Part shown: in pieces, positions 208 to 43,590 of the stretch
Layout of the letters: the number at the start of each line of letters is the position of its first letter
Numbering within the stretch: position 1 is the first letter of the stretch
Source of the DNA: Candidatus Chisholmbacteria bacterium
GTDB lineage: Bacteria > Patescibacteriota > Microgenomatia > UBA1400 > Chisholmbacteraceae
Assembly (NCBI GenBank): GCA_963704905.1
Contig: CAVPHZ010000001.1
Location: forward strand, 451,438-515,437
Length of the DNA: 64,000 nucleotides
Reading direction: 5' to 3'
Made by a program: the position numbers and the translations under genes
The notes under the pieces: model-generated
Database searches by the model: none
What the model was told of the DNA's origin: nothing
What the model saw: the letters and a program-made list of their open reading frames with translations, nothing else

Positions 208-2610
208 TTATTCGTTTTCAGGTTTTAGGGATGAAACCTTTTGAAGTGTTGTGGTATTTATTGTTGTTGTGGGGTAATTTATTTTTCCTGAAGGTTCACC
301 ATTTTCATTCACATCTTGAGGCCATGGGCAGTCCAAGCAGAAATCTTTTACCAAAGCATCGGAAATGACAGTATGTTCGCGGAGTTCGATATTTTCAAAA
401 TCTCCTTCTTCTGGAGGAAGGTTTGTGTCCTTTTTAATCCAAATCCCTCGACGGCTAAAATCAATTTGGTTCAGGTCAAATTTTTTATTGAAAAACTCAT
501 GGCGAGTTGGACAGGGGTTGTCCGGATTTGGAACAAGTCCAGATAGGCTGCAAACATCTCTTCCGACTATTCCGACTGGTCTGTCTGGCCATTCTGCTTC
601 TTTACCTTCTAGTGTTTTGTCCATGAGTGCATTCCAAATTGGTGCTGCTCCGGTAACTCCAGAAACAAGGTAGGGATGCATTGGTGTGTTGTCATTGTTT
701 CCAACCCAGGTTGCTACCAGGAAGTTTGGTGTGAAACCGATTGTCCAATTATCTCTCAGGTCATTCGTGGTGCCGGTTTTTACTGAGACAACTTGGTTTG
801 GAATCACAAGTTGTGAGGAGGAACCAAAGGCTGCGGCCCGTGCATTGTTATCTAATAGTATGTGAGAAATAAGATATGCAGTTTCTTGAGAAAGGACGCG
901 TTTTGGATCTGTTTCATTTCCTTCATACTTCTCATTATCTAGATTATTCATTTTATCTACAATGTTACTCATTTCAGTTGTGTTGTACTGCTCAAGAATA
1001 TTACCTTGTTGGTCCTCGACTTTTAAGATGGGATTGAGATCAACCCGAATGCCTTTGTTTGCAAATACTCCAAATGCTGTTGCCATGTCAACCATTCTAA
1101 TTTCTCCTCCTCCGAGAGTGAGTGATAGGCCATATTGGCTGGAGTCGTTCCAGCCCTTTATACCCATGGCACTTGCTGTTGCGATCATGCTCTCAATGGA
1201 GTTTATTGCTAGAGTTTTCACTGCTGGGATGTTATAGGAGTTGGCAAGCGCGAAGCGAGCTTGCGTGACTCCGTGAAAGGCGTTGTCATAGTTTCTTGGA
1301 CAGTACAATGGTTGACCGGCGACGAAGAAGCAGGTTGGAATGTCAAGGAGCACTGAGGCTGGATTGAGCTTTCCTAGCTCAAATGCTGTGGCGTAATTTA
1401 TTGGTTTAATGGAGCTGCCTGGTTGTCGGGGGCGGATGGTGACATTGACGTTACCATCATGCTCGGTGTCAAAATAATCACGAGAGCCTATCATTGCAAG
1501 GATCTCTCCGGTTTTTGGGCGAGTGATGAGAGCGGCGCCGTTACCAACTCGCATTTCTTCTAAATCAGCTATCTCTGCTGATACTGTTGCTTGTGCATAC
1601 TCTTGGAGTTGGAGATCTAAGGTTGTGGTTACTTTCAGCCCTCCACGCTCAACCATGCGCTCTCCGAATTTTTCCACAAGCAGTTCTTTTACCCAAAGAA
1701 CGAAGTGCGGAGCCTTTATATCCACTAGGGGAGGAGCGAAGTTTAGTACCTCATTTGAGGCATTATTTTTATCTTCCTCGGTGATATACCCGTCTTCGAC
1801 CATGCGGTCGAGGACAAATTCCTGTCTTTGTTTGGCGATTTCTGGGTTTGCTCCAAGAGGGGAATATCGAGTTGGAGCGGCGGGAAGTCCGGCAAGGAGC
1901 GCGGCCTCAGCAAGTGAAAGATCACTAGCTTTCTTGGCGAAATAGTTTTGAGCAGCGGATTCAATACCCCAAGCTGTTCCTCCATATGGAACGTGATTGA
2001 GATACATTTCTAAGATTTGCCCTTTTGTGTAGATAAGTTCAGTGAGTATGGAAAGGATGGCTTCTCTGGCTTTTCTGCGGACAGTACGTTCTGGTGTAAG
2101 CAGTGCTGTTTTAACGAGTTGCTGAGTGATGGTTGAGCCGCCTTGGAGTTTTTTACGAAACAGCGTATTGTAAACGGCCCTCAACAAACCTTCTGAGGCA
2201 AATCCATGATGTTTGTAGAAATTCTTATCTTCCGCAGCAATGTGGGCTTGACTTACATAGTCAGGGAGCTCTTCAAGTGATACTGGTGATCGGTTTCGCT
2301 CTGCGTAAATTTCAAACAGCAACGTTTCGTTGCGGTCATAGATTCGTGATGATGAGGCGTAGGCATCAGCTTGGAGAAGCTTGGTTGGGGAGGGAAGATC
2401 TCTGAAGGCGAAGAAATAGGAAAATACGGTGAAGGCTACAAGTACGAGCACTACATACCAATATTCTCTCACTTTCCCTGCAGATGTTAACAATAACCCT
2501 TTCTTTTTGAGGAGTGTCTTTAACGATGTTCTCAATTTCTTCTTTTTCTTCTTCCTGGTTTTTTTGGTGTTTTTGAAGAGTGTATTTTTTATCTTTTTCT
2601 CTTTTTTCAT
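208..2610 (-). CDS. Class A penicillin-binding protein (bifunctional transglycosylase/transpeptidase, PBP1A-type) with a lysine-rich N-terminus and one TM helix
   Basis: GT51 motif RKKLQGGSTITQQLVKT; transpeptidase SxxK (GSSIKP), SxN and KTGTT motifs; 800 aa; its start overlaps the stop of the upstream kinase gene. Confidence 0.85.
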   Translation of the reverse strand: MKKEKKIKNTLFKNTKKTRKKKKKKLRTSLKTLLKKKGLLLTSAGKVREYWYVVLVLVAFTVFSYFFAFRDLPSPTKLLQADAYASSSRIYDRNETLLFEIYAERNRSPVSLEELPDYVSQAHIAAEDKNFYKHHGFASEGLLRAVYNTLFRKKLQGGSTITQQLVKTALLTPERTVRRKAREAILSILTELIYTKGQILEMYLNHVPYGGTAWGIESAAQNYFAKKASDLSLAEAALLAGLPAAPTRYSPLGANPEIAKQRQEFVLDRMVEDGYITEEDKNNASNEVLNFAPPLVDIKAPHFVLWVKELLVEKFGERMVERGGLKVTTTLDLQLQEYAQATVSAEIADLEEMRVGNGAALITRPKTGEILAMIGSRDYFDTEHDGNVNVTIRPRQPGSSIKPINYATAFELGKLNPASVLLDIPTCFFVAGQPLYCPRNYDNAFHGVTQARFALANSYNIPAVKTLAINSIESMIATASAMGIKGWNDSSQYGLSLTLGGGEIRMVDMATAFGVFANKGIRVDLNPILKVEDQQGNILEQYNTTEMSNIVDKMNNLDNEKYEGNETDPKRVLSQETAYLISHILLDNNARAAAFGSSSQLVIPNQVVSVKTGTTNDLRDNWTIGFTPNFLVATWVGNNDNTPMHPYLVSGVTGAAPIWNALMDKTLEGKEAEWPDRPVGIVGRDVCSLSGLVPNPDNPCPTRHEFFNKKFDLNQIDFSRRGIWIKKDTNLPPEEGDFENIELREHTVISDALVKDFCLDCPWPQDVNENGEPSGKINYPTTTINTTTLQKVSSLKPENE

Positions 2611-3433: not shown

Positions 3434-4153
3434 TTGACTGCAATTACTATGCTTCGAAGAATAGTTGAGTTTACCAAACGAATCCATCCAGACAATGCTC
3501 GAATAGAGCTCATCCGAAGGACACTGGTTGTTTATGCAACTTTGTTTATTCTTTGGGGTCTGTATCGTCTTCTTTTGCGCTTACCTCTATTTATAGAGGA
3601 GATGATTATTAAGCCATTTATTTTTCTTCCACCTGCATTGTCTGTTATTGAAGGGGAAGATCGACGGCCAGGGAAACTTTTACGGGCTTTTGGATTTCAT
3701 AAATCAGGGATAGTTCTTTCCATCTATCTTGGTTTAACCCTAGGGGTTTCGTATTTTCTTGCAGTAGGTTTGGGGCGCTTGGTGTTTTCAGGGAGAGAGG
3801 TGTTCGGAATATTGCATATCTCTGGATATCAATTGATAACCGTCATTGTCATTTCAATAGCGACAGCTGTATGGGAGCAAATGATCTTTTCTGGGTTTTT
3901 TCTCTTGCGATTCCAGCGTGTACTTAATGATGAGTGGAGGAGTGTGACACTCACGGCTGTGTTGTTTACGCTTTTGCATCTCCCAATCTTAGTTCTTGAT
4001 GGGTCATTTCGACCACTGTTTGTAGTTATACAATTGGTGTTGATTTTTCTGGTTGGTTTTGGAAATGCTGTTCTGATGCTTCGAACTAAAAATGTCATTG
4101 CTCCGATCCTTTCGCATGCGTTTTGGGCAGTGGCGCTTCAGTTAGTCGTATAG
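3434..4153 (+). CDS. Polytopic membrane protein, CPBP (CAAX protease/Abi) family-like
   Basis: Multiple TM helices; motifs WEQMIFSGFF (EExxxR-like), FTLLH (FxxxH), LSHAFW (H-containing third motif). Confidence 0.4.
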   Translation: MTAITMLRRIVEFTKRIHPDNARIELIRRTLVVYATLFILWGLYRLLLRLPLFIEEMIIKPFIFLPPALSVIEGEDRRPGKLLRAFGFHKSGIVLSIYLGLTLGVSYFLAVGLGRLVFSGREVFGILHISGYQLITVIVISIATAVWEQMIFSGFFLLRFQRVLNDEWRSVTLTAVLFTLLHLPILVLDGSFRPLFVVIQLVLIFLVGFGNAVLMLRTKNVIAPILSHAFWAVALQLVV

Positions 4154-4212
4154 ATATTACCTCTGGTGAGTTTTGATATTTGCCCTAGTCGTGGTACAAT
4201 CCGCTCTAGCTT

Positions 4213-5460
4213 ATGGCTTCTTCTCGTCTTTCGAAAAACATTGCTCAACAAGTGAAAGCAAATTTTTCTGATCAAATCAGTTTTGCTTCTGCTCTGATTC
4301 GAGAAAAAAGTGAAAATCCTTTTACACCTGATGAGTCTCGTCCTAATGAGGCAATCGAGAAGAATGTGGCTGAGCTTATTTATGGTCAGCTTCAATCTTT
4401 TGGATTACAGCCCAAACGCATTGGAGCGACAAAAAATCGTCCGAATGTGGTTTGTTATTGGGGTCCACGGAGATTCCGTAAAAGTTTGATTCTCAATGGC
4501 AATATGGATACCACACCAGCGGGTGAAGATTACACACTCGAGCCTTTTTCGGGAGCAGTTCGAGATGGAAAGCTTTTTGGTGTTGGTGCTGCAGATATGA
4601 AAGGGACACTTTCTGCATATGTTTATGCGGTCAAGGCACTCCTTGATGTTGGCGTTAAACTTGATGGACGGCTGATTCTAGAATTTACTGTGGATGAGGA
4701 GCCTGGGGGTTGCAGTGAGCTTGGTACATCTTATTTGCTCAAACAAGGGATTCGAGCACGAGCGGCTATTATCGGAAAACCTGGGACGAAGAAAATTTCA
4801 ATTGGCAATAGAGGTGGATATCGGTTTAAGCTGACAACTTTTGGTGAGGCAGTGCACACCGGGAGGCGTGCTTGGGAGCGAAAGGAAGCAGGACGTAACG
4901 CGATTATGGATATGGCGAAGGCAGCTGTTTCGTTGGAAGATTTGGAGATTCCCTTTAAACCAGCTCGAGCTTTCTCTGGACGAACACCTGTATTTACTTT
5001 TCCGACAAAAATTTCAGGTGGCGTTTCGGTCAACACTGTTCCAGATAAGAGTGTGGCATATGGGGATGTTCGACTTATGCCAGGAAACAGTGATCGGCAA
5101 GTTAAGATTTGGATTCGAGAGAGGCTCGCTTCAATTCCAGGACTTCGATATGAGCTTGAAGACCTTCTCTTCGTGCCGTCGACGGAGATTGATCGCAAGG
5201 AAGAAGTCGTTGAGATTTTAGCGATTCAGGCTAAAGAAGTGTTGGGTTTTTCACCAAAAGTTGAAGGATCAGGGCCGTGGGGTGATGCGTGGATGCTGGT
5301 CACGCACGACATACCCACAGTGAGTGGCTTCGGACCAGATGGGGAAGGACATCATGGTGTGAATGAATGGGTTGATCTTGAGAGTTTACAGCAGGTGACT
5401 GAAATATATGCCCAGACTATTGTTGAATTTCTCGGACTTCGAAGTAAAGATGAATCCTAA
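4213..5460 (+). CDS. M20 family metallopeptidase (ArgE/DapE-like deacylase)
   Basis: LNGNMDTTP...GAADMKG metal-binding block typical of M20/ArgE/DapE; 415 aa. Confidence 0.7.
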   Translation: MASSRLSKNIAQQVKANFSDQISFASALIREKSENPFTPDESRPNEAIEKNVAELIYGQLQSFGLQPKRIGATKNRPNVVCYWGPRRFRKSLILNGNMDTTPAGEDYTLEPFSGAVRDGKLFGVGAADMKGTLSAYVYAVKALLDVGVKLDGRLILEFTVDEEPGGCSELGTSYLLKQGIRARAAIIGKPGTKKISIGNRGGYRFKLTTFGEAVHTGRRAWERKEAGRNAIMDMAKAAVSLEDLEIPFKPARAFSGRTPVFTFPTKISGGVSVNTVPDKSVAYGDVRLMPGNSDRQVKIWIRERLASIPGLRYELEDLLFVPSTEIDRKEEVVEILAIQAKEVLGFSPKVEGSGPWGDAWMLVTHDIPTVSGFGPDGEGHHGVNEWVDLESLQQVTEIYAQTIVEFLGLRSKDES

Positions 5461-5491
5461 TTCTCTTGTTATAGTGTAATATGATCGAACT

Positions 5492-6160
5492 ATGAAGAAT
5501 CGTACATTACATCTTATTTTTTTAAGTTTTGGTTTATCTGTTCTCACTTTTTCAGTATGGCGTTCAAATGCGACGTTTGTTTCTCTGGCTCTTGAATCTA
5601 AAAGCGAGGTGGCAGTTGAAAGCACTGCCTCCCCTATCACGATTGATGTTTCAGAGAGTGATTACTCATTGTTATATCCAGGACTGTTGCCGGATCATCC
5701 ACTCTATTTTATAAAAATGATTCGAGATCGTGTTCAGCTTTGGTTCACGAGAAATCCTCTTGCCAAAGCTCAGCTTATGCTTACTTATTCCGATAAGCGA
5801 TATGCAGCAGCGCTTGCGCTTGCCGAGAAAGGTAAATCAGGACTTGCTATTAGCACGGTGACAAAAGCAGCTCATTACACTGACCGATCATTGAATGAGG
5901 CAAAACGAGCGGAGGAGCAAGGTCAGGACGTTACACAGTATTATGAAAAATGTTTATCTGCTGTCATGAAGCACCAGGCTGTCTTAGCTGGTATTGTTTC
6001 TCGGGTGGCGAAAGACGCTCAAGGAGGTTTGAGCGATGCGATTCAACTCAACTCTCAAGATCAAGAGAAGGTTCTCGATCTTCTCGGCGGGAGTATGCAG
6101 GATCATGAGTCGACCTCAAGCGGAAACCCTTCCGAGTTAGAGGGTATGGATGAGCAGTGA
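5492..6160 (+). CDS. Secreted DUF5667-like protein
   Basis: N-terminal signal/TM; block YPGLLPDHPLYFIKMIRDRVQLWFTRNPLAKAQL...AAALALAEKGK matches the DUF5667 signature (LPGSPLYxLK...AELxLxFAEERLAEA) recalled from Patescibacteria proteins. Confidence 0.5.
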   Translation: MKNRTLHLIFLSFGLSVLTFSVWRSNATFVSLALESKSEVAVESTASPITIDVSESDYSLLYPGLLPDHPLYFIKMIRDRVQLWFTRNPLAKAQLMLTYSDKRYAAALALAEKGKSGLAISTVTKAAHYTDRSLNEAKRAEEQGQDVTQYYEKCLSAVMKHQAVLAGIVSRVAKDAQGGLSDAIQLNSQDQEKVLDLLGGSMQDHESTSSGNPSELEGMDEQ

Positions 6161-6240
6161 TTGTAGACATGTTTGTTCTTCCTTGATGCTTCTTCATTTC
6201 ATTGATACTTGTGGTATTGTAGAAACAATAACTTTTTTAC

Positions 6241-6413
6241 AGCGGAATCTTGTGTAAATCGAGAACTGTGCCGCAACTGTGACCAAGTCACATTTTGTCA
6301 TGTGACGCGGGAGTCAGGAACGCTAGTGAGAAAGTAAGATTTCCCGCGCAGGAAGAAACGTAGATGAACCTGAATTTATTTATAAATGCAACCTTCCTGT
6401 AGGAAGGTTTTTT
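6241..6413 (+). promoter_or_regulatory. Candidate cobalamin (B12) riboswitch leader with a terminator/RBS-sequestering hairpin
   Basis: Segments GCCGCAACTGTGA (resembles the conserved CCGCCACTGTAA block) and GAGTCAGGAACGC (B12-box-like, first 9 of 16 consensus positions match); GCGCGGG...CCCGCGC long-range pairing; ends in ACCTTCC-tgta-GGAAGGT + T6 hairpin that contains the GGAAGG RBS and abuts the ATG at 6414; downstream genes are a DUF4430 protein and an S-component-like membrane protein. Confidence 0.4.
6391..6413 (+). terminator. Intrinsic terminator/RBS-sequestering hairpin (expression platform of the leader)
   Basis: ACCTTCC tgta GGAAGGT followed by TTTTTT immediately before ATG 6414. 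Confidence 0.5.
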
Positions 6414-6845
6414 ATGAAGAAAAATGTTTTACTGACTTTTATTGCTTTTCTTGGATTGGCTGTTGGTTTCGTTTATTTTTACTTTACCTCTTTTCAATCT
6501 CCAACCGGTTTGGTTCCATTGAATGAAGTTACTGAAGTCGGTAATGATACGTATCTCTTGCGAGTTGATAAGGGAGATGCTCATCCAGTTACTCATGCCA
6601 GTACATATGCTGAAGGTCAGACAGCATTTGGTGTGCTGCAAGACTATGCAACACAGGAAGATATCAATCTTGTGGCAGAGCATTATGATTTTGGAGTTTT
6701 TGTAAAAGCCATTGATGGGCTTGAAGGTAATGAAGAGCGAGCGTGGATTTATTTTGTGAATGGTGAATCAGGCAGTATCGCGGCCGATCAATATCTATTA
6801 CAATCTGGAGATGTCGTGGAGTGGAGGTATGTCGAACCGAACTAA
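6414..6845 (+). CDS. DUF4430 domain protein (transcobalamin beta-domain-like, putative B12-binding) with N-terminal membrane anchor
   Basis: C-terminal block FGVFVKAIDGLEGNEERAWIYFVNGESGSIAADQYLLQSGDVVEWRY fits the DUF4430 pattern (f..I.G....yW.Y.VNG....ga..y.l..GD.i.W.y); N-terminal hydrophobic helix. Confidence 0.55.
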   Translation: MKKNVLLTFIAFLGLAVGFVYFYFTSFQSPTGLVPLNEVTEVGNDTYLLRVDKGDAHPVTHASTYAEGQTAFGVLQDYATQEDINLVAEHYDFGVFVKAIDGLEGNEERAWIYFVNGESGSIAADQYLLQSGDVVEWRYVEPN

Positions 6846-7437
6846 TACTTTTCGATGGATCTTATTTTTAAGTCTGGCATTCATTGCTTTTCTTGAGCGG
6901 GTGGTGTTTGACTTTGGACCAAATATTGAGTTAGTGACATTGAGCATGCTTCTTGCTAGCGCATATTTGGGATCATCATTTTCTATACTACTTGTGTTGA
7001 TCGTGTTATTTCTCTCTGATATTGTTCTGGGAACAACGAGTATTTTCCTGTTTACTTGGACTGGATTTCTCATACCTGCTTTTGTTTCCTCGCGTCTTTT
7101 TTCAAATATGCAACGAAGAAGGTTGCAGGGCGGATTTCCAGTGCTTTTCGGTTCGGTTCTCGGATTTAGTTCCAACTTATTTTTCTTTACTTGGACAAAT
7201 TTTGGAGTATGGCTGTTAGATGTTTGGGGGATGTATCCTCGAGATCTTTCAGGACTTCTTCTATCGTATATTCATGGATTGCCATTTTTGAAACTTCAGC
7301 TACTAAGCACATTGGTGTTTGTTCCGATTGGGTTTGCTGCTGTAGAAGTGGTACGAGCTCTCGCTCTTCAGCTGAAGGGGGATCGTGCTCTATTACGTGA
7401 ATTACTGCGACGCGCAGGGCTCTTTTCTTCATCGTAA
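6829..7437 (+). CDS. Small polytopic membrane protein, ECF S-component/BtuM-like (putative cobalamin uptake)
   Basis: About 6 TM helices over ~200 aa; ATG at 6829 preceded by GGAGG; 17-nt overlap with the DUF4430 gene; the track ORF 6760 start is probably too early. Confidence 0.35.
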   Translation: MSNRTNTFRWILFLSLAFIAFLERVVFDFGPNIELVTLSMLLASAYLGSSFSILLVLIVLFLSDIVLGTTSIFLFTWTGFLIPAFVSSRLFSNMQRRRLQGGFPVLFGSVLGFSSNLFFFTWTNFGVWLLDVWGMYPRDLSGLLLSYIHGLPFLKLQLLSTLVFVPIGFAAVEVVRALALQLKGDRALLRELLRRAGLFSSS

Positions 7438-7742
7438 ATCATTTCGATTTATCGGACCACTATTTATACCCTTACGGGTATTATTCGATAGGAAAATACT
7501 ATTTTTACTTTGGAGAAGTTTCTATTCTCTTTTTTTCTTCTCCGCTTATTTAAGATGTGTGAACATAAATGTTATGGCTGTTATAGCAAGACTATTAGTA
7601 TTAATTGAGTACAGAATATAATTTCGTTTTCTGAGCATGTTGTTTATTGTTCCTTTCTAGGTAGAAGTAAGGTATTCAATATATTCCTTTCTAACATCTC
7701 ACATCTGGATGATGTATATTGATGCTATTATTACTAGTTGAC

Positions 7743-7790
7743 AGTCTAGGACTAGTGGACTTACGCTCATATTGACACTACGGGTAGTGT
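7743..7790. promoter_or_regulatory. Candidate tandem NrdR boxes upstream of nrdR
   Basis: 16-bp palindrome ACACTACGGGTAGTGT (7775-7790) matches the NrdR-box outer consensus acaCwA....TwGtgt; weaker box AGTCTAGGACTAGTGG (7743-7758); centre-to-centre spacing 32 bp; located ~40-80 bp upstream of the nrdR ATG. Confidence 0.4.
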
Positions 7791-7825: not shown

Positions 7826-8275
7826 ATGAAGTGCCCGTACTGCGGAAGCACAGAGAGCAGTGTACTTGAGAGTCGGCTCAATGAAGATGAGAATTCTATT
7901 CGACGTAGAAGAGAGTGTGGATCATGCGAAAAGCGATTCACTACTTATGAGCGAGTTGAAGGAATCGATTTAACAGTGGTAAAGAAAGATGGAGCACGTG
8001 AGTCTTTTGATAGAGAAAAAATAAAGAAAGGACTCATGAAAGCCACATGGAAACGGCCGGTGACGATAGAAGATATCGAGCGATTGATTGATAATGTCGA
8101 GCAGAAGCTTCGACGAAGGAGAAGCAATGAAATTAAAAGTTGGGAGATTGGCAATATGGTAATGACCAGATTAAAAAGAATTGACCCAGTTGGCTATTTA
8201 CTGTTTGCGAGTGTGTATCGTGATTTTCAGGACATTGATGATTTTATTAGGGAGTTAAAGAAGCTGGAGGATTAG
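7826..8275 (+). CDS. nrdR: Transcriptional repressor NrdR (Zn-ribbon + ATP-cone)
   Basis: MKCPYCGSTESSVLESRLNEDENSIRRRRECGSCEKRFTTYERVE is the canonical NrdR N-terminus; ATP-cone follows; 149 aa. Confidence 0.9.
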   Translation: MKCPYCGSTESSVLESRLNEDENSIRRRRECGSCEKRFTTYERVEGIDLTVVKKDGARESFDREKIKKGLMKATWKRPVTIEDIERLIDNVEQKLRRRRSNEIKSWEIGNMVMTRLKRIDPVGYLLFASVYRDFQDIDDFIRELKKLED

Positions 8276-8391
8276 ACGACTGCGGTGGCGGATCTTTGAT
8301 TGGTTTTATCAATTTAGGAGCCTGCCCTATTCGCCACCAATTCATATAGTAATTAATATGTTTCGATTTGTACTCTAGAGTAAATAACTTT

Positions 8392-10713
8392 ATGTCAGAG
8401 CTAAAACTTTTGCCCAGGACTATTCAGCGCACAGGTGTACCTCTCCGCAGGAAAACTAATGGATTTGCACCGAATGGTTTTCATCCCCAGCAGCTTAATT
8501 GGGTCATTCCCAATGGGGAAGTAAAACATATAAACGGTTTCGTTACCGAACCACATCCAGTTGTTGGTTGGGAGCAGAAGCGAATGAAAAAACGGATGCG
8601 GTTTGCATCTAGGTCTCTATCCACTGGATTGGGGCGTGCGGTTGCGAAGCGAACCATCCTGCGTGGTGAGGAAACATGGGAGGATGTTGCGGAACGGGTT
8701 GCAATTGGAAATACTTCGCTTCTTCCATCACATATGAGAACGCATGGAAAGGAAGAGTATGAGCTTCTAAAAAAACATGTTGCCAATGCGTCCTTGTTGA
8801 TGAGCGGTCGACATTTGCAACATGGAGATGCAACACAAGCAACTCGGAATATGGAGGTGTTTACCAACTGCTCGACAGCTTCAGTGACGTTTATTCTCTT
8901 CTATTTACTCTTAAACGGTTCTGGTGTTGGACGAAGCTATGATGATGATATGTGTGTAGTTGATTGGGACTATATGCCGATTGTACGGTGTGTGTTGAAT
9001 GATAAGCACCCCGATTTTGTTTGGGGTGAGAATGAATCGGTGCGCGAGGCCAGGCATAAATATAACAAGGTGTATTGGTTCGAAGTACCTGACTCGCGAG
9101 AGGGATGGGCACAAGCGATTGAGAAAATAGAGGTGATGGCGTTTGAGCGAAAGTATAAGGATGAGGTGTTGGTTTTAGATTTTTCTAAGGTTCGTGAGAA
9201 GGGTCAGCCCATCCGAGGGATGCAGAACCGGCCGGCATCGGGACCAAAACCTCTGATGCATGCAATAGATAAACTTTCAACGATAAAAAATGCCGGCATG
9301 AAACCGTGGAAGCAGGCGATATTTGCAGATCATTACCTGGCTGAATGTGTATTGGTGGGTGGTGCTCGACGAGCGGCGCGGATTGCTACGAAGACGTGGA
9401 ACGATTCTGATATTTTTGAGTTTATTAATATCAAAAAGGGTGGGTTTTTGTGGAGCGCGAACAACAGCGTGGCTGTGGATGATAAATTCTGGCAATTTAA
9501 AACCAAACATGCGAAAAAGGTGTTTGATGCGGTGATGCACGCCAGCTATCATCATGATACGGGTGAGCCAGGGTTTGTGAATCAACATCGGTTTGTCCAA
9601 AACGATGATAAGTACGATGGGTATTTGGATGGGAAGTTTGCTGTTAGTAACAAATACAAGCCAGGGAAGCAAACACAGAAGATGCTTTCATCAATTGCTA
9701 AAACAGCTTCTTCAAAGCTCTACACCCAAATTCCAAACCCCTGCGGAGAGATAACGCTAAATATGCTTGGCGGATATTGTGTGATTGGTGATGTTGTACC
9801 TTACTTTGCTCCGGACGTCGATGCAGCAGAAGAAGCATATAGAGTGATGACACGGGCACTCATGCGGGTGAATACTATGGATTCGCTTTATAACCGAGAA
9901 GTACAGCGGACGAACAGGATAGGGGTGGGAATGACCGGGATTCATGAGTTTGCCTGGAATTCATTTGGGTATGGTTTCTACGATCTTATTGATGAGGAAA
10001 AGAGTAAAGACTTTTGGAATACACTCTCACGATTCAAGCGAGCGGTGAATGATGAAGCTGAGAAGTATAGCAAGTTTTTAGGGCTTTCAGCACCTCATAC
10101 CAATACGACGATAAAACCGGCTGGAACGACATCAAAACTTTTTGGTCTGAGTGAAGGCGCTCATCTCCCTGCGATGCGTGAGTACATTCGCTGGGTGCAG
10201 TTTCGTAATGACGATCCCCTAGTAAAGCGTTATGAAAAAATGGGTTATCCCGTGAAGCGGTTGAAGACCTATGAAGGTACAACGGTAATTGGATTTCCAA
10301 CTCAACCGGAGACTTGCAGACTTAAGATGGGGAATAAGCTCGTAACTGCCGCAGAAGCAACACCGGAAGAGCAGTTTAAGTGGCTGATGCTTCTTGAAAA
10401 ATATTGGATTGTGGGAGTGGATGAAGAGGGTGTTCCACTTCCAGACACTGGGAATCAAGTATCATACACACTCAAATACAAGAAAGAAAATATCAGTTTC
10501 AGAAAATATAAAAACTTGATGCGGAAGTATCAATCACAAGTGAAATGCGTGAGTGTGATGCCACAGCAAGATGTCACGGCATATGAGTATCAGCCGGAGG
10601 AGGCGGTGACGATTGCTGATTTCATGAAGGTATTGAGCGAAGTCACTGGTGAGATGGATGAGGATATCGATTTGGAAGCGTTGCAATGTGACGCAGGTGC
10701 GTGTCCAATATGA
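8392..10713 (+). CDS. rtpR: Monomeric adenosylcobalamin-dependent ribonucleoside-triphosphate reductase (class II RNR, Lactobacillus leichmannii RTPR type)
   Basis: Blocks RTILRGEETWEDVAERVAIGN, PASGPKPLMHAID, FLWSANNSVAVDDKF, DTGEPGFVN, NPCGEITL (N-x-C-x-E thiyl radical loop) and the C-terminal CDAGACPI redox tail all align with recalled L. leichmannii RTPR; no ATP-cone; track ORF starts at TTG 8368, the ATG at 8392 (MSELK...) is the likelier start. Confidence 0.85.
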   Translation: MSELKLLPRTIQRTGVPLRRKTNGFAPNGFHPQQLNWVIPNGEVKHINGFVTEPHPVVGWEQKRMKKRMRFASRSLSTGLGRAVAKRTILRGEETWEDVAERVAIGNTSLLPSHMRTHGKEEYELLKKHVANASLLMSGRHLQHGDATQATRNMEVFTNCSTASVTFILFYLLLNGSGVGRSYDDDMCVVDWDYMPIVRCVLNDKHPDFVWGENESVREARHKYNKVYWFEVPDSREGWAQAIEKIEVMAFERKYKDEVLVLDFSKVREKGQPIRGMQNRPASGPKPLMHAIDKLSTIKNAGMKPWKQAIFADHYLAECVLVGGARRAARIATKTWNDSDIFEFINIKKGGFLWSANNSVAVDDKFWQFKTKHAKKVFDAVMHASYHHDTGEPGFVNQHRFVQNDDKYDGYLDGKFAVSNKYKPGKQTQKMLSSIAKTASSKLYTQIPNPCGEITLNMLGGYCVIGDVVPYFAPDVDAAEEAYRVMTRALMRVNTMDSLYNREVQRTNRIGVGMTGIHEFAWNSFGYGFYDLIDEEKSKDFWNTLSRFKRAVNDEAEKYSKFLGLSAPHTNTTIKPAGTTSKLFGLSEGAHLPAMREYIRWVQFRNDDPLVKRYEKMGYPVKRLKTYEGTTVIGFPTQPETCRLKMGNKLVTAAEATPEEQFKWLMLLEKYWIVGVDEEGVPLPDTGNQVSYTLKYKKENISFRKYKNLMRKYQSQVKCVSVMPQQDVTAYEYQPEEAVTIADFMKVLSEVTGEMDEDIDLEALQCDAGACPI

Positions 10714-10799: not shown

Positions 10800-11222
10800 A
10801 TGAAATTTCGGTTGACGGTGAATGCAGCGATTTTCAATAAAGACGGGGAAGTGCTTCTTTGCAAAATGCCTAAGAATCAAGGTGTTTATCCTGGACAATG
10901 GGCGCTGCCGGGCGGTGGGATGGAAGAGGATGAGCAGATGCTTGATGCCTTGAAGCGGGAGATTAAGGAGGAAGTTGGTTTGGATGTTACTGATATTGTT
11001 CCCATACATTTTCAAGATGATGAGCGGATAAAATTATTGCGAAATGGCGGAGAAGAAGCAGTGTATATGATCCATCTTGTTTTTCAAGCAAAGGCGGATT
11101 CGAATAGCGTCACAATAAATGATGAGTTTGAGGATTATGCATGGGTTGGAAAAAGAGATTTAACAAAGTACGATTTAAATAGAGCAACAATAAATACATT
11201 TACACAATTAGGATGGATATGA
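10800..11222 (+). CDS. NUDIX hydrolase
   Basis: Nudix box GGGMEEDEQMLDALKREIKEEVGL (GX5EX7REUXEEXGU). Confidence 0.75.
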   Translation: MKFRLTVNAAIFNKDGEVLLCKMPKNQGVYPGQWALPGGGMEEDEQMLDALKREIKEEVGLDVTDIVPIHFQDDERIKLLRNGGEEAVYMIHLVFQAKADSNSVTINDEFEDYAWVGKRDLTKYDLNRATINTFTQLGWI

Positions 11223-11617
11223 AACGGATAAAAGTTGGTGTTTTGTTACTATTGCTGCTTCTTGTTCTCCTTTGGTTATTTTTCTACTTCCGCGAAATTT
11301 TACACAAAGAGATGTTGTCATTTGAAGAGCATCCACTCAATTTCTGCAGTGTTCATGAGGATTGTTTTATTTACTCGTACTCAAATTGTGGTTGCACTGC
11401 TCGCCATGCTATTAATATCCAATACGAGAATGATAAAGATGTGCTTGAGAAATATTACCCAATTACACCTAAGGAAGAATGTACTGCTGTTTGTGGAACT
11501 AGTGCTCCAGGTACATATCAAGCCTTTTGTAGAGATGGTTTATGCGGTTTGCGATTTTCGTCATCTCTTGAAAAAAAATCTCGCCTAGATAAATTTTTAG
11601 ATATTCTTTATTACTAA
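11213..11617 (+). CDS. Hypothetical membrane-anchored cysteine-rich small protein
   Basis: N-terminal poly-Leu TM; 10 Cys in ~100 aa of extracytoplasmic region; no recognisable family. Confidence 0.3.
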   Translation: MDMKRIKVGVLLLLLLLVLLWLFFYFREILHKEMLSFEEHPLNFCSVHEDCFIYSYSNCGCTARHAINIQYENDKDVLEKYYPITPKEECTAVCGTSAPGTYQAFCRDGLCGLRFSSSLEKKSRLDKFLDILYY

Positions 11618-11628
11618 ACTGGCTCAGC

Positions 11629-12075
11629 ATGAGAATTCAGCTCAAACACGGAGAGAAATGTGATCATTGTGGGTTACGGTATGTCCGTGATGTGGCTGCG
11701 GATGCGATTGCAGTTGCTGATGGAAAGATTGCTTTAATTAAGCGTAGTAAGGAGCCCAGTAAAGGTATGTGGGCATTGCCTGGTGGAATGTTAGATTGGG
11801 ATGAGAGCGCGGAGGAGGCGGTGGTAAGGGAGTTTGAAGAAGAGACTAGTCTCAAAGGTAAGTTGGGACGTTTTGTTGGTGTCTACTCTGATCCGAATAG
11901 AGATTCATTTCAACGGGTGGCGGTTGTGTATGAGGTTGTGGTTGTGGGTGGGAAGCTCAATGCTAGTGATGATGCAGCAGATGCCAAGTGGTTTCCGCTT
12001 GATGATTTACCGGAGTTAGCTGTGGATCATGGGAAGATGGTGGAGGATTACAAGCGAATAGTAGAGAGTGAATGA
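11629..12075 (+). CDS. NUDIX hydrolase with N-terminal Zn-ribbon-like CxxC
   Basis: Nudix box GGMLDWDESAEEAVVREFEEETSL; N-terminal CDHCG. Confidence 0.75.
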   Translation: MRIQLKHGEKCDHCGLRYVRDVAADAIAVADGKIALIKRSKEPSKGMWALPGGMLDWDESAEEAVVREFEEETSLKGKLGRFVGVYSDPNRDSFQRVAVVYEVVVVGGKLNASDDAADAKWFPLDDLPELAVDHGKMVEDYKRIVESE

Positions 12076-12401
12076 TGAAATTTGAAGAGATTGTAAAGAA
12101 AACTAAAGAGTTAGATAGCATGTTTAAACAACGGTTTGATACGCGAGATCGGGCGTTGGATTTGGTTGAAGAGGTGGGAGAACTGGCTCAGGCGATGCAG
12201 ATATTTGAAAAGCGGAAGCTAACGAATGATCCAAGCAAGAGAAGAAGCAAAAAAGATCTAGCTGACGCCCTTGCTGATATTTTGTATGATGTCATTCTGC
12301 TTGCAGGGCAATATGAGATCAATCTCGAAAAAGAGTATATTGAGATGCTTGAGCGATTGAAAGAAAGAGTTGGTAGAGGAGAATTTGATGGCAATGAATG
12401 A
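12072..12401 (+). CDS. MazG-like nucleotide pyrophosphohydrolase domain protein
   Basis: LDLVEEVGELAQAM ... LADALADILYDVILLA matches the MazG/NTP-PPase EExGE and second helix; overlaps the upstream NUDIX gene by 4 nt. Confidence 0.6.
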   Translation: MMKFEEIVKKTKELDSMFKQRFDTRDRALDLVEEVGELAQAMQIFEKRKLTNDPSKRRSKKDLADALADILYDVILLAGQYEINLEKEYIEMLERLKERVGRGEFDGNE

Positions 12402-12455: not shown

Positions 12456-14738
12456 TTGTTTATGGATCGTTCAAAAACCTCTCTGATTAAGAAAATTCAA
12501 AAACGGAATGGACGAGTTGTTGATTTTGATGAGTTAAAAATTACCAATGCGATAACGCTTGCTGGTGAGCGGACCGGAGAGATTGGATCATTGGAGGCGA
12601 AACGATTGACTGGGATTGTTGTCCATCTTCTCGGTAAGGCGAATGGTGATCATATTCCTACAGTTGAGTATGTTCAAGATACGGTTGAGCAAGTGCTGAT
12701 GGCAGCGTCACATTTTCAGACTGCAAAAGCGTACATTATTTTTCGAAAAGATCAGGCTCAGCTTCGTGCAGCGCGCCACGTCATTGGAGTGGAAGATGAT
12801 TTGGGAATGACTGTCAATGCCCTTAAAGCAATGGCTAGGCGGTATTTGACACAAGATGCGAAGGGTAACGTGATTGAAACGCCAAGGCAGGCAGTTGAAC
12901 GGGTTGCACGAACGGTTGCCTCTGCAGAACACACCAAGAAAAAAACCTGGGAAAAGAAGTTTGCGGAGATGATTGGCAGTTTTCGATTTGTACCGGCCGG
13001 GTGTTATTTTCGTGGTGCAGGGAGAAAACGCGGTTTACTGGCGAATTGCTTTGTGTTACCTGTCGAAGATGATATGACGAAGATTTTCGACTCGGTGAAA
13101 TGGACGGCACTTATTCATCAAGCTGGTGGCGGAACCGGATATAACTTTTCAAAGTTGCGACCGAAAGGCGATGTGGTTAGTGGAGGTGGCTTTGCTTCTG
13201 GACCAGTATCTTTCATGAAAGCGTTTGATGCGGCAACGGAAATTGTCATGCTGGGAGGCCGTCACCGTGGGGCGAATATGGGAATTCTCAATGCTGATCA
13301 TCCTGATATTTATGATTTCATTACCTGTAAGACTCAAGAGGGGCAGATTAGTAATTTCAATATTTCAATTGGAGCGAGTGATGCGTTTATGGAAGCAGTT
13401 TCAAAAGATAAAGCCTGGAAGCTTTTGAATCCCCGAACTGGTGAGGTGGTCCGTACTGTGGGAGCCAAAAGCATCTTTGATCAAGCTGTAGCGCTCGCAT
13501 GGAAGACGGGAGATCCCGGGATGATTTATCTTGATACGATTAATAAAAATAATGCACTGTATGATGCCTTGGGCCCGATTGATGCAACCAACCCTTGCGG
13601 TGAGCAGCCTCTCCATCCATTTGACGTTTGTAATTTGGGATCGATTAATCTTGCTAGCATGGTTTTGGGAGGGATGGGAAATGGTGTGGTCCGAAGGAGT
13701 GTCGATTGGAAGGGGCTTGAAGAAACTACAAGACTTGCAGTTCGGTTTTTGGATGATGGGATCGATGCAAGTGATTATCCCATTGCTCAAATTGATCAGA
13801 TGGCAAAACGGATTCGTCGAATCGGTATGGGAGTAATGGGTTGGGCGGATATGTTGCTACAGCTACGGATTCGATATGACTCTAATGAAGCTGTGAAGCT
13901 GGCAGAAAAGGTGATGCACTTCATTCAACAGGTGAGTTGGGAAGAAAGCGCAAAGCTGGCTCGCGAGAAGGGTGCATTCCCGCTATGGAAAGAGAGTCAG
14001 TATGCAAAACGACATCCAGTTTTAAGCAAGCGTGGTGCGAAGCGGGGAGTAAAAGTACGTAATGTTGCCATTACCACAATTGCTCCAACAGGAACTATCA
14101 GTATGCTTGCAGATTGTAGCTCGGGTATTGAGCCAGTGTTTGCACTGGCGTATGTTAAAAATGTGATAGACCAACACGGATTGACGTATACGAATAAGTA
14201 TTTTGTACATGAGCTACGATCTACTCTGGGAGATAGTCGAACTGCTCGAGTGGACGATGTCTTACATGATGTATCCAAAACTGGGAGTGTTTCGCATGTA
14301 ACCGGCGTACAAAAATGGATCAAGAGTGTATTTCGGACAGCCCACGATATTTCTCCAGCATGGCATGTGAAGATGCAAGCGGCTTTTCAGAAACATACTG
14401 ACAATGCGGTAAGCAAAACCATCAATTTTGCAGAGTCGGCGACTATTGAAGATATTGAAAAAGCATATTTAACTGCGTGGGAGATGGGTTGCAAAGGCAT
14501 TACTATTTATCGTGATAAGAGCAAGAGCGTTCAGATATTGCAAACTGATACTACTGAGACGACCAAAGAGACTCCAATACAGAGCAAAATTTCAATTACC
14601 CCACTGGCTCTTCAGGCAGAGGTTTCTGGAAATGAGGGACAACAAGAAGATATGTGTCCCGAGTGCGGTGGATTTATGTATTTTGCGGAAGGGTGTAGCA
14701 CTTGTCAGCAGTGCGGGTATAGCAAGTGTGAAGTGTAG
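12456..14738 (+). CDS. nrdJ: Adenosylcobalamin-dependent ribonucleotide reductase, class II NrdJ type, with N-terminal ATP-cone and C-terminal Zn-ribbon
   Basis: ATP-cone KIQKRNGRVVDFDELKITNAI; active-site loop NPCGEQPLHPFDVCNLGSINL; C-terminal CPECGG...CSTCQQCG; 760 aa. Confidence 0.85.
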   Translation: MFMDRSKTSLIKKIQKRNGRVVDFDELKITNAITLAGERTGEIGSLEAKRLTGIVVHLLGKANGDHIPTVEYVQDTVEQVLMAASHFQTAKAYIIFRKDQAQLRAARHVIGVEDDLGMTVNALKAMARRYLTQDAKGNVIETPRQAVERVARTVASAEHTKKKTWEKKFAEMIGSFRFVPAGCYFRGAGRKRGLLANCFVLPVEDDMTKIFDSVKWTALIHQAGGGTGYNFSKLRPKGDVVSGGGFASGPVSFMKAFDAATEIVMLGGRHRGANMGILNADHPDIYDFITCKTQEGQISNFNISIGASDAFMEAVSKDKAWKLLNPRTGEVVRTVGAKSIFDQAVALAWKTGDPGMIYLDTINKNNALYDALGPIDATNPCGEQPLHPFDVCNLGSINLASMVLGGMGNGVVRRSVDWKGLEETTRLAVRFLDDGIDASDYPIAQIDQMAKRIRRIGMGVMGWADMLLQLRIRYDSNEAVKLAEKVMHFIQQVSWEESAKLAREKGAFPLWKESQYAKRHPVLSKRGAKRGVKVRNVAITTIAPTGTISMLADCSSGIEPVFALAYVKNVIDQHGLTYTNKYFVHELRSTLGDSRTARVDDVLHDVSKTGSVSHVTGVQKWIKSVFRTAHDISPAWHVKMQAAFQKHTDNAVSKTINFAESATIEDIEKAYLTAWEMGCKGITIYRDKSKSVQILQTDTTETTKETPIQSKISITPLALQAEVSGNEGQQEDMCPECGGFMYFAEGCSTCQQCGYSKCEV

Positions 14739-43074: not shown

Positions 43075-43590
43075 TTGAGTATGAAGAGAAAACGGAAAGG
43101 AATGGTTTATGTTTTTACTGGGGATGGAAAGGGGAAGACAAGCGCTGCGATTGGAGTTGGGGTGCGTGCGGCTTTGATCGGAAAGAAAGTCGCAATGGTT
43201 TGTTGGTATAAGAGCAAAGATTGGGATGTAAGTGAGTATTTGTTACCTGAGAAACTTCGCAATTTTACGATTTACAATCTTGGTAAGGGATTTTTTATTA
43301 AGGACGCCCAATATCGACTTGGTGATTCGGAGATTAAGATCACACCACTCACAGGTGGCGGAAACGTTGTTGACCGTGCGAGCAAAGATCAGCATGTTCT
43401 TGCAGCTCAGGAAGCACTGAAAAAAGCTGAAAAACTCATAAAGAAAGTCGATGTGCTTATATTGGATGAGGTGAATACTGCCTGTTTTGACCGATTGGTT
43501 TCTGTTGGTGAAGTTCTGGATCTACTCAAGCAACGTGGTTCGACGCATGTGATTTTGACCGGGAGAAATGCACCGAGAGATGATCTTTAG
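43075..43590 (+). CDS. cobO: ATP:cob(I)alamin adenosyltransferase, CobA/CobO/BtuR family
   Basis: P-loop GMVYVFTGDGKGKTSAAIG ... LILDEVN; 171 aa. Confidence 0.7.
   Translation: MSMKRKRKGMVYVFTGDGKGKTSAAIGVGVRAALIGKKVAMVCWYKSKDWDVSEYLLPEKLRNFTIYNLGKGFFIKDAQYRLGDSEIKITPLTGGGNVVDRASKDQHVLAAQEALKKAEKLIKKVDVLILDEVNTACFDRLVSVGEVLDLLKQRGSTHVILTGRNAPRDDL

Follow-up and report, generated by a model that had tools for sequence, protein, structure and literature searches.

A predicted cobalamin riboswitch and the DUF4430-DUF6580 gene pair that it heads, a putative B12-uptake cassette in a Candidatus Chisholmbacteria bacterium

Introduction

The closest known system to the locus described here is the nrdJ-cbrS-cbrT-pduO cluster of the Lactobacillales, as found in L. 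delbrueckii, in which CbrT is the S-component of the experimentally validated energy-coupling factor (ECF) transporter for vitamin B12, ECF-CbrT (Santos et al. 2018, PMC5997447). CbrS is very probably a DUF4430 protein, judging from the annotation of L. rhamnosus. We analysed a stretch of 64,000 nucleotides from a Candidatus Chisholmbacteria bacterium (contig CAVPHZ010000001.1, positions 451,438 to 515,437), hereafter the window, in which a predicted cobalamin riboswitch (leader 6231-6413) precedes a DUF4430 gene and an overlapping DUF6580 gene. The riboswitch is of a known class, and the DUF4430-DUF6580 cassette is a probable, uncharacterised cobalamin-uptake system. An earlier note on this stretch had read it as a B12-scavenging operon consisting of a cobalamin riboswitch, a transcobalamin-like protein and an S-component or BtuM-like membrane protein.

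As in the Lactobacillales, the DUF4430 gene lies directly 5′ of a gene for an S-component-type membrane protein of about 200 amino acids (aa), the pair adjoins an adenosylcobalamin (AdoCbl)-dependent ribonucleotide reductase (RNR), the genome encodes a corrinoid adenosyltransferase, and the host is auxotrophic for B12 and lacks an outer membrane. However, the membrane protein of the window belongs to DUF6580 and has no detectable sequence similarity to CbrT, and its DUF4430 partner has a transmembrane helix as its anchor, not a lipobox as in CbrS. Moreover, the adenosyltransferase is of the BtuR/CobA type and is encoded 36 kb away, instead of being an adjacent PduO-type enzyme, and no ECF module was found near the pair. 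The second comparison is with BtuM, a solitary S-component-like B12 transporter (PDB 8c7p). BtuM has an S-component fold of six helices and about 190 aa, which the predicted fold of DUF6580 resembles, and DUF6580 may likewise act without an ECF module. In contrast to BtuM, to which it shows no sequence similarity, DUF6580 lacks an invariant Cys or His for cobalt ligation or decyanation, and it is nearly always paired with a DUF4430 binder.

Results and Discussion

The leader as a cobalamin riboswitch

The leader of the DUF4430 gene matched Rfam family RF00174 on the forward strand at 6192-6341 with 37.5 bits, above the gathering score of 31.5 (E = 6e-6 for the entire window, 4e-8 in a local search), bearing out the riboswitch proposed in the earlier note. 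At gathering thresholds the entire window contained four Rfam matches, namely three tRNAs and this one. A covariance model built from the leaders of related operons (R1) matched 6228-6354 with 61.6 bits (E = 6e-11). The parts of the aptamer, with the basis of each assignment, are as follows (MFE, minimum free energy).

6231-6335, forward strand: compact aptamer without P2 (RF00174, model R1, MFE fold, covariation in relatives)
6231-6244 / 6321-6335, forward strand: P1 (MFE fold and alignment with relatives)
6244-6247, forward strand: GGAA junction directly 3′ of P1 (sequence)
6248-6252 / 6260-6264, forward strand: P4 (alignment)
6252-6260, forward strand: L4 block GUGUAAAUC, T-loop-like conserved core
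6267-6268 / 6274-6275, forward strand: P5, with loop L5 UGCCG, of which GCCG is 6270-6273
6270-6280, forward strand: conserved core GCCGCAACUGU (sequence)
6277-6279 / 6315-6317, forward strand: base of P6 (alignment)
6287-6293 / 6300-6306, forward strand: P6 hairpin (alignment)
6311-6323, forward strand: B12 box GAGTCAGGAACGC, with core GAGUCAGGAAC at 6311-6321 (consensus AGYCMGGA)

The core blocks (the GGAA junction, L4, GCCGCAACUGU and the B12 box) are all present, and in the alignments of relatives they are invariant or nearly so. The two blocks from which the earlier note had recognised the riboswitch, CCGCAACTGTGA at 6271-6282 and the B12 box at 6311-6323, are thus both there; its leader started ten bases too late, since the aptamer begins with P1 at 6231. 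In an alignment of 16 leaders from orthologous operons, 87.9% of cells were paired under the aptamer structure, against 31-46% in slid controls. Changes on both sides were found at 18 of the 26 pairs, a count reached by 0/500 shuffles, although the contrast is somewhat inflated because the structure was derived from the same sequences. Compensatory sets include alignment pair 54-97 (UA 10, CG 3, GC 3) and the pairs of P4. Covariation supports helices P1, P3, P4, P6 and P13, the last of which is described below.

With the cobalamin riboswitches of clan CL00101 the RNA shares the conserved core, the helices of the four-way junction, a P13 hairpin with L5-L13 complementarity and a place in the 5′ leader of a B12-regulon gene, where an off-switch through a terminator and sequestration of the Shine-Dalgarno (SD) sequence would be expected. 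It differs from class-I members in lacking P2, so that P1 stacks directly on P3, and in having a simple P6 hairpin where these have the P7-P11 extension. Neither the P2 helix nor a large P6 extension is present in the MFE fold or in the relatives. As both elements vary within the clan, their lack does not exclude membership of RF00174. The P1/P2 that Rfam places at 6192-6230 was rejected, as it contains many non-canonical pairs, and the MFE fold and the relatives agree on P1 at 6231-6244/6321-6335; the Rfam alignment reaches back to 6192 because P2 is forced onto an RNA that has none.

A chance resemblance, with the operon constitutive or regulated by other means, could be argued from that poor P1/P2 alignment and from a score only 6 bits over the gathering score. 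Set against this are the complete set of core blocks, homologous leaders in at least 30 genomes that covary in each helix, and several relatives that independently attain the Rfam gathering score for RF00174 or RF01689, and we consider such a coincidence extremely improbable. On these sequence comparisons the leader is almost certainly a bona fide cobalamin riboswitch. As a riboswitch it is ordinary, and it offers a clean example of a minimal P2-less aptamer.

A 15-mer core, CTGTGCCGCAACTGT, was tried as a probe of metagenomes and set aside, as it is common to many unrelated cobalamin riboswitches; DUF4430 or DUF6580 adjoined about 12 of its 121 matches, which served as extra examples only. 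Upstream of the aptamer, one candidate promoter element was read from the sequence.

6212-6220, forward strand: possible extended -10 promoter element TGGTATTGT

Such a promoter would possibly start transcription 2-4 nt upstream of P1. A consensus promoter scan instead proposed TTGATA at 6202 with AACAAT at 6229, and promoter-like sites in the region were no more numerous than in shuffles.

P13, the kissing loop and the expression platform

Between P1 and the start codon lie a conserved hairpin (P13), the two strands of an antiterminator, a short upstream open reading frame (uORF) and a terminator. P13 and the antiterminator had both been missed in the earlier note.

6340-6355, forward strand: P13 hairpin, stem UUUCC/GGAAG, loop L13 CGCGCA at 6345-6350, 3′ arm with SD-like AGGAAG
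6349-6355, forward strand: antiterminator 5′ strand CAGGAAG, made of the last base(s) of L13 and the 3′ arm of P13; partner 6393-6399
6364-6402, forward strand: uORF of 12 codons, MNLNLFINATFL and stop, 7 nt after the SD-like AGGAAG of P13, its TAG stop in the terminator loop
6390-6413, forward strand: intrinsic terminator and SD sequestor, AACCTTCC-TGTA-GGAAGGTT at 6390-6409 and T6 at 6408-6413 (terminator scan, inverted repeat)

P13 is kept just 3′ of P1 in 29 relatives, and its stem covaries at all five pairs (CC/GG, UU/AA, UC/GA). The loop is a near-invariant CGAGCA in the relatives and CGCGCA in the window. Its bases CG.GC (6345, 6346, 6348 and 6349) are complementary to the GCCG of L5, making a potential kissing loop. 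These four pairs are 99% paired in 29 sequences, two of them being replaced in places by AU and CG, and compensatory variants occur in locus L013 (ACCG with CGAGU) and in the second riboswitch copy of locus L016 (CUCG with CGAAG). The covariation score of P13 and the kissing loop was 0.324 against 0.192 in shuffles (0/500 reached it), for an alignment that was assembled by hand; sequence alone cannot prove a tertiary contact.

The terminal hairpin of the earlier note holds up. Its 8-bp, GC-containing stem (hairpin energy -10 kcal/mol) and the T6 fit an intrinsic terminator, its 3′ arm contains the SD sequence GGAAGG (6402-6407), and the T6 directly abuts the ATG at 6414. The antiterminator strands, CAGGAAG (6349-6355) and CTTCCTG (6393-6399, in the 5′ half of the terminator), are a perfect 7-nt inverted repeat. 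When the leader 6231-6413 was folded under constraints, the antiterminator form came to -51.1 kcal/mol, which equals the MFE, and the terminator form to -50.3 kcal/mol. In the nascent transcript up to 6400 the antiterminator (-45.4 kcal/mol) was favoured by 6.5 kcal/mol over the P13 conformer (-38.9 kcal/mol). From these energies the default state would therefore be read-through, with the SD sequence free. Because the two forms of the full leader are nearly isoenergetic, the direction of switching is drawn from analogy with characterised cobalamin riboswitches, from which we infer that B12 turns expression off.

The switch would then work as follows. Cobalamin bound by the aptamer (6231-6335) would pre-organise the L5 GCCG to kiss L13 (6345-6349) and so lock 6340-6355 as P13. 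This would release 6393-6399, allowing the hairpin 6390-6409 with its U-run to form, to end transcription just before the ATG and to bury the ribosome-binding site GGAAGG, so that the genes are off. Without B12, 6349-6355 would pair with 6393-6399; no terminator would form and the SD sequence would stay accessible.

Two designs of platform, apparently interchangeable, occur on orthologous operons. Either the 3′ arm of P13 itself provides the SD sequence (AGGA), with the AUG 5-9 nt beyond, or P13 is followed by a GC-rich hairpin and a U-run abutting the AUG, a terminator under the control of P13. The window is of the second type. A hairpin with a U-run directly 5′ of the AUG was found in about 20 related leaders, and complementarity between P13 and the terminator exceeded that of shuffles (at most 4/200) in about half of 21 related leaders of this type.

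Control might instead act at one level, the hairpin 6390-6409 being a translational SD sequestor only, or a terminator only, and translation of the uORF might relay the signal by melting the hairpin. Many relatives are purely translational, with the SD sequence inside P13, and the uORF has a well-spaced SD sequence in P13 and a stop in the hairpin loop. Nevertheless, the GC-containing stem with its T6 is what an intrinsic terminator looks like, and the uORF is not kept in other terminator-type leaders, on which ground it was rejected as a conserved relay. One-level control is thus unlikely, and combined termination and SD sequestration remains our preferred scheme. The ATG of the uORF stands about where relatives with the SD sequence in P13 start the DUF4430 gene (about 5-9 nt past the hairpin). 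Most likely the uORF is incidental or a relic, although a coupling of its translation to the melting of the hairpin is conceivable.

The earlier note had also described a long-range pairing, GCGCGGG with CCCGCGC. A perfect 7-bp inverted repeat does exist, but its arms are CGCGGGA (6306-6312) and TCCCGCG (6342-6348), the upstream sequence reading ACGCGGG. We rejected this helix as a conserved element, since it is not kept in relatives and its 3′ arm belongs to P13 and L13, the note's CCCGCGC being really the 5′ arm and loop of P13. Folds forced to contain the helix were about 7 kcal/mol less stable than the aptamer fold. As it is contiguous with the antiterminator strand, it could at most assist the ligand-free state. 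The core of the B12 box, CAGGAA (6315-6320), is a near-duplicate of the P13 3′ arm and is complementary to TTCCTG (6394-6399) in the 5′ half of the terminator; an unfolded aptamer could in principle supply it as a second antiterminator strand.

The DUF4430 protein

Downstream of the riboswitch are the two overlapping open reading frames (ORFs) that the earlier note had listed, of 143 aa and, from a start at 6829, 202 aa.

6414-6845, forward strand: DUF4430 protein, 143 aa (PF14478), with a membrane anchor helix (residues 3-25), a linker and a beta-rich domain (46-140)
6829-7437, forward strand: DUF6580 protein, 202 aa (PF20221), overlapping the DUF4430 gene by 17 nt (AlphaFold2 model, Foldseek)

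As the note had supposed, the first is a DUF4430 protein, matching PF14478 over residues 68-140 with 55.2 bits (cutoff 23.8). In its AlphaFold2 model (predicted local distance difference test, pLDDT, 86.6) the N-terminal helix is followed by a low-confidence linker and then the beta-rich domain. The top 19 PDB matches found by Foldseek (probability 1.00, E from 3e-6 to 7e-5) were all transcobalamin, intrinsic factor, haptocorrin or the bacterial DUF4430 structure 3u7z. Against the isolated human beta domain (5no0) the model had a TM-score of 0.77-0.78, with a root mean square deviation of about 2 Å over about 98 residues. Residues 46-140 superpose on the beta domain of the cobalamin carriers (5no0, 5np4, 4kki), and Pfam DUF4430 is the same domain family. 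The eukaryotic carriers differ in having an alpha domain as well, whereas in the window protein the beta domain, with 15-20% identity to theirs, stands alone on its membrane anchor.

Lipobox-like signals (LTGC, LAGC) occur in the orthologues of Dojkabacteria and Actinobacteria, and a signal-anchor in other orthologues; the DUF4430 domain is therefore expected outside the cell. Its modelled fold makes it a putative extracytoplasmic cobalamin binder, similar to CbrS. The idea that Bacteroides BtuH is a DUF4430 protein was dropped, as the BtuH paper names neither the DUF nor transcobalamin.

The DUF6580 membrane protein

The second protein matched PF20221 with 84.5 bits (cutoff 27); NCBIfam gave no match for either protein of the pair. 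Its 202-aa product is identical to one database protein, and 202 homologues share PF20221, one of which NCBI names "DUF6580 family putative transport protein". The AlphaFold2 model (pLDDT 90.2) had its best PDB folds among the ECF S-components RibU, ThiT and FolT and in BtuM, with TM-scores of 0.44-0.64 and weak Foldseek E-values (0.6-5). The top TM-scores, 0.59/0.64, were to BtuM with cyanocobalamin. The S-component or BtuM-like protein of the earlier note is in line with these fold matches, but not with the sequence family. Membership of BtuM was rejected, as sequence searches of all PDB chains gave no match at E<=10 (BtuM entries are present in the Foldseek PDB library), and so was membership of CbrT, with no match at E<=10 in PDB chains that are assumed to include the ECF-CbrT structure. 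By sequence, the membrane component is of a different family from both.

An alignment of homologues (A1) has 25 invariant and 17 nearly invariant columns; invariant residues include E23, R24, N32, E34, T37, D64, W77, T123, N124, W128 and Y136. We searched the longer members of the family for DUF4430-DUF6580 fusions and found none, their N-terminal extensions being without a Pfam domain. The modelled S-component-like fold makes the DUF6580 protein a putative cobalamin translocator.

Distribution of the gene pair and its riboswitches

A scan of one genome per GTDB species returned 286 loci with DUF6580 relatives, of which the best 80 were examined. These are mostly Patescibacteria (Woese-, Gottesman-, Ames-, Dojka-, Kerfeld- and Doudnabacteria), together with four Actinobacteria of the Cellulosimicrobium/Oerskovia type and one Iainarchaeum (DPANN). 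A DUF4430 gene lies directly 5′ of DUF6580, usually overlapping it, in 70/80 loci. Of the 10 loci in which it does not, 9 have a class II RNR gene upstream of DUF6580, and a class II RNR adjoins the pair in at least 25 of the 80 genomes. Model R1 detected a riboswitch directly 5′ of DUF4430 in 30 loci, including 10 with RF00174 or RF01689 at Rfam gathering scores; aptamers of relatives of the same operon are RF00174-like or RF01689 (AdoCbl-II)-like. This linkage to a B12-dependent RNR and to cobalamin riboswitches in many genomes agrees with the B12-scavenging operon of the earlier note, in which the proteins would bind and transport the vitamin.

Bacteria of the candidate phyla radiation (CPR, Patescibacteria) are thought to lack vitamin biosynthesis. 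As a class II, B12-dependent RNR stands beside the cassette in many genomes, DNA synthesis in these cells would therefore depend on scavenged B12. B12 uptake in this group has not been described so far, our literature search found no paper that links Patescibacteria with cobalamin riboswitches, and this locus is a concrete candidate. The cassette is well supported as a candidate new family of proteins for cobalamin uptake in CPR bacteria. It spans Woese-, Gottesman-, Ames-, Dojka- and Kerfeldbacteria, some Actinobacteria and one DPANN archaeon, and many of its members appear to be under direct B12 control. With an uptake role, a DUF family as large as 3,655 representatives of 50%-identity clusters would acquire a function, and the transcobalamin-like domain of bacteria (CbrS/DUF4430) would gain a defined partner.

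A second cobalamin riboswitch lies directly 3′ of the DUF6580 gene in 10 related genomes.

L013, 3588-3716 (ORF 3718-4542)
L005, 3073-3163
L066, 3539-3634
L016, 3468-3563
L017, 3633-3771
L023, 3554-3717
L027, 3629-3733
L037, 3556-3691
L001, 3623-3776
L042, 3453-3546

In at least 6 of these 10 genomes it heads an unannotated protein of 270-340 aa with a terminal CxxC...CxxC zinc-ribbon. Two of these proteins were tested and matched no Pfam family above threshold, and no homologue was found in the window. In five loci of the Gottesmanbacteria type a riboswitch lies about 2.3 kb upstream of DUF4430, before a protein of 700-800 aa without a Pfam match.

L026, 129-223 (ORF 264-2513)
L040, 161-285 (ORF 364-2505)
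L054, 1-99
L030, 1-86
L041, 228-394

A W-x-S-P-like motif in the N-terminal region of this protein seems to recur in the zinc-ribbon proteins, and the protein may be another member of the CPR B12 regulon. In L039 a riboswitch match of 52.9 bits (2288-2386, reverse strand) lies just 5′ of the DUF4430 gene on the opposite strand and would therefore control a divergent gene, not the cassette.

Uptake model and its alternatives

We propose that the membrane-anchored, outward-facing DUF4430 protein captures cobalamin at the cell surface and that the translationally coupled DUF6580 protein carries it through the membrane. Once inside, it would receive its adenosyl group from a BtuR/CobA enzyme (43075-43590) and then be used by the neighbouring AdoCbl-dependent RNR. 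The whole model, a B12 riboswitch that switches off a two-gene uptake cassette when B12 suffices, seems to us probable, and we hold the uptake role of the cassette with the same good confidence. That DUF6580 is the translocator is somewhat less secure, though still likely, whilst its acting independently of ECF is tentative.

Several observations weigh against the model. No source of energy was seen: the window contains no ECF module and no ABC (ATP-binding cassette) ATPase signature, and in three related contigs (L201-L203) the stretch up to 8 kb from the pair is free of CbiQ/EcfT and ABC_tran genes. Over half of the DUF4430-DUF6580 loci among the 80 have no riboswitch detectable with R1. Neither the single DUF6580 sequence (phmmer) nor a 28-sequence profile matches any PDB chain at E<=10, BtuM included. 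There is no Cys or His among the invariant or nearly invariant columns to ligate cobalt as in BtuM, for which Rempel and colleagues reportedly described, in 2018, a conserved cobalt-ligating cysteine. A literature search found no paper naming DUF6580, an experimentally uncharacterised family. Lastly, the terminator and the antiterminator are nearly isoenergetic in the constrained folds of the full leader.

The missing energy source bears on whether DUF6580 could be an ordinary group-II ECF S-component that docks on a shared EcfAA′T module encoded elsewhere, as CbrT does. The structural matches to RibU, ThiT and FolT would suit this, and a shared ECF module also serves CbrS-CbrT, the nearest known parallel (PMC5997447). 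The lack of ATPase and EcfT genes in the window and around the pair in relatives speaks against it, although this linkage argument is weak, as shared ECF modules are normally unlinked. Moreover, helix 1 conserves only A20 and has no AxxxA pair. On balance we find an ECF-dependent S-component rather doubtful.

The cassette might also handle another B12-related molecule or task, such as cobinamide, another corrinoid precursor, a lower ligand, or extracellular sequestration or storage. ECF-CbrT carries cobinamide too (PMC5997447), riboswitch control shows membership of the B12 regulon only, and further unannotated riboswitch-controlled proteins adjoin the pair in relatives. However, nothing recognisable for corrinoid remodelling is encoded in the window, whereas an adenosyltransferase and AdoCbl-dependent RNR(s) are. 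In solved structures the transcobalamin beta domain touches the complete cobalamin (5np4 was one of the matches), and a polytopic membrane partner of six helices argues for translocation. We regard a different substrate or task as very unlikely, and uptake of cobalamin itself as the better reading.

The more ambitious form of the proposal is that DUF4430 and DUF6580 are an unrecognised, self-contained importer, in which a tethered binder hands B12 to a solitary S-component-like permease without an ECF ATPase. This would be the main B12 route of the Patescibacteria/CPR, some DPANN archaea and Actinobacteria, within a regulon that holds further unannotated proteins such as the zinc-ribbon protein. 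We put this forward tentatively, as a conjecture. If true, it would explain how reduced, auxotrophic cells feed their B12-dependent RNRs.

Neighbouring genes and minor observations

In the window the gene order is DUF4430, DUF6580, NrdR and RTPR. The genes of interest downstream are listed here.

7826-8275, forward strand: NrdR repressor (TIGR00244, 194.7 bits)
8368-10713, forward strand: class II (AdoCbl-dependent) RTPR-like RNR (TIGR02505, 228 bits, below the equivalog cutoff; PF21995, B12-dependent RNR insertion domain)
12456-14738: second RNR, with an ATP-cone
43075-43590, forward strand: ATP:corrinoid adenosyltransferase BtuR/CobA (PF02572, 112 bits), 36 kb from the cassette

The RTPR-like reductase is likely to be the consumer of the imported B12. 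BtuR/CobA completes a coherent salvage route, from uptake through adenosylation to use. Between the two RNR genes (10800-12401) lie two NUDIX genes, a MazG-like gene and an ORF without a Pfam match, and the genes behind NrdR form a nucleotide-metabolism island. The 388-nt gap between DUF6580 and nrdR contains the palindromes ACATCTGGATGATGT (7701-7715) and ACACTACGGGTAGTGT (7775-7790), which resemble NrdR boxes; at about 74 bp apart, their spacing is wider than usual.

A DUF5667 gene (5492-6160) is found immediately 5′ of the riboswitch. DUF5667 also lies upstream of DUF4430 in L001 (1485-2249) and L044 (1363-1908), and a single ORF of L042 (2231-2971) matches both domains, with DUF5667 apparently N-terminal. 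This hints at a functional link between DUF5667 and DUF4430.

Downstream of the cassette, six relatives contain group I introns (RF00028, 55-119 bits).

L011, 4467-4773
L004, about 5376-5644
L005, 4142-4328
L013, 4711-4954
L018, 4203-4495
L008, 5039-5231, reverse strand

In L011 a tRNA-Asn(GUU)-like gene is split into halves on either side of the intron, and its 3′ half is seen in L004. L003 and L016 have an intact copy of this tRNA-Asn at the corresponding position.

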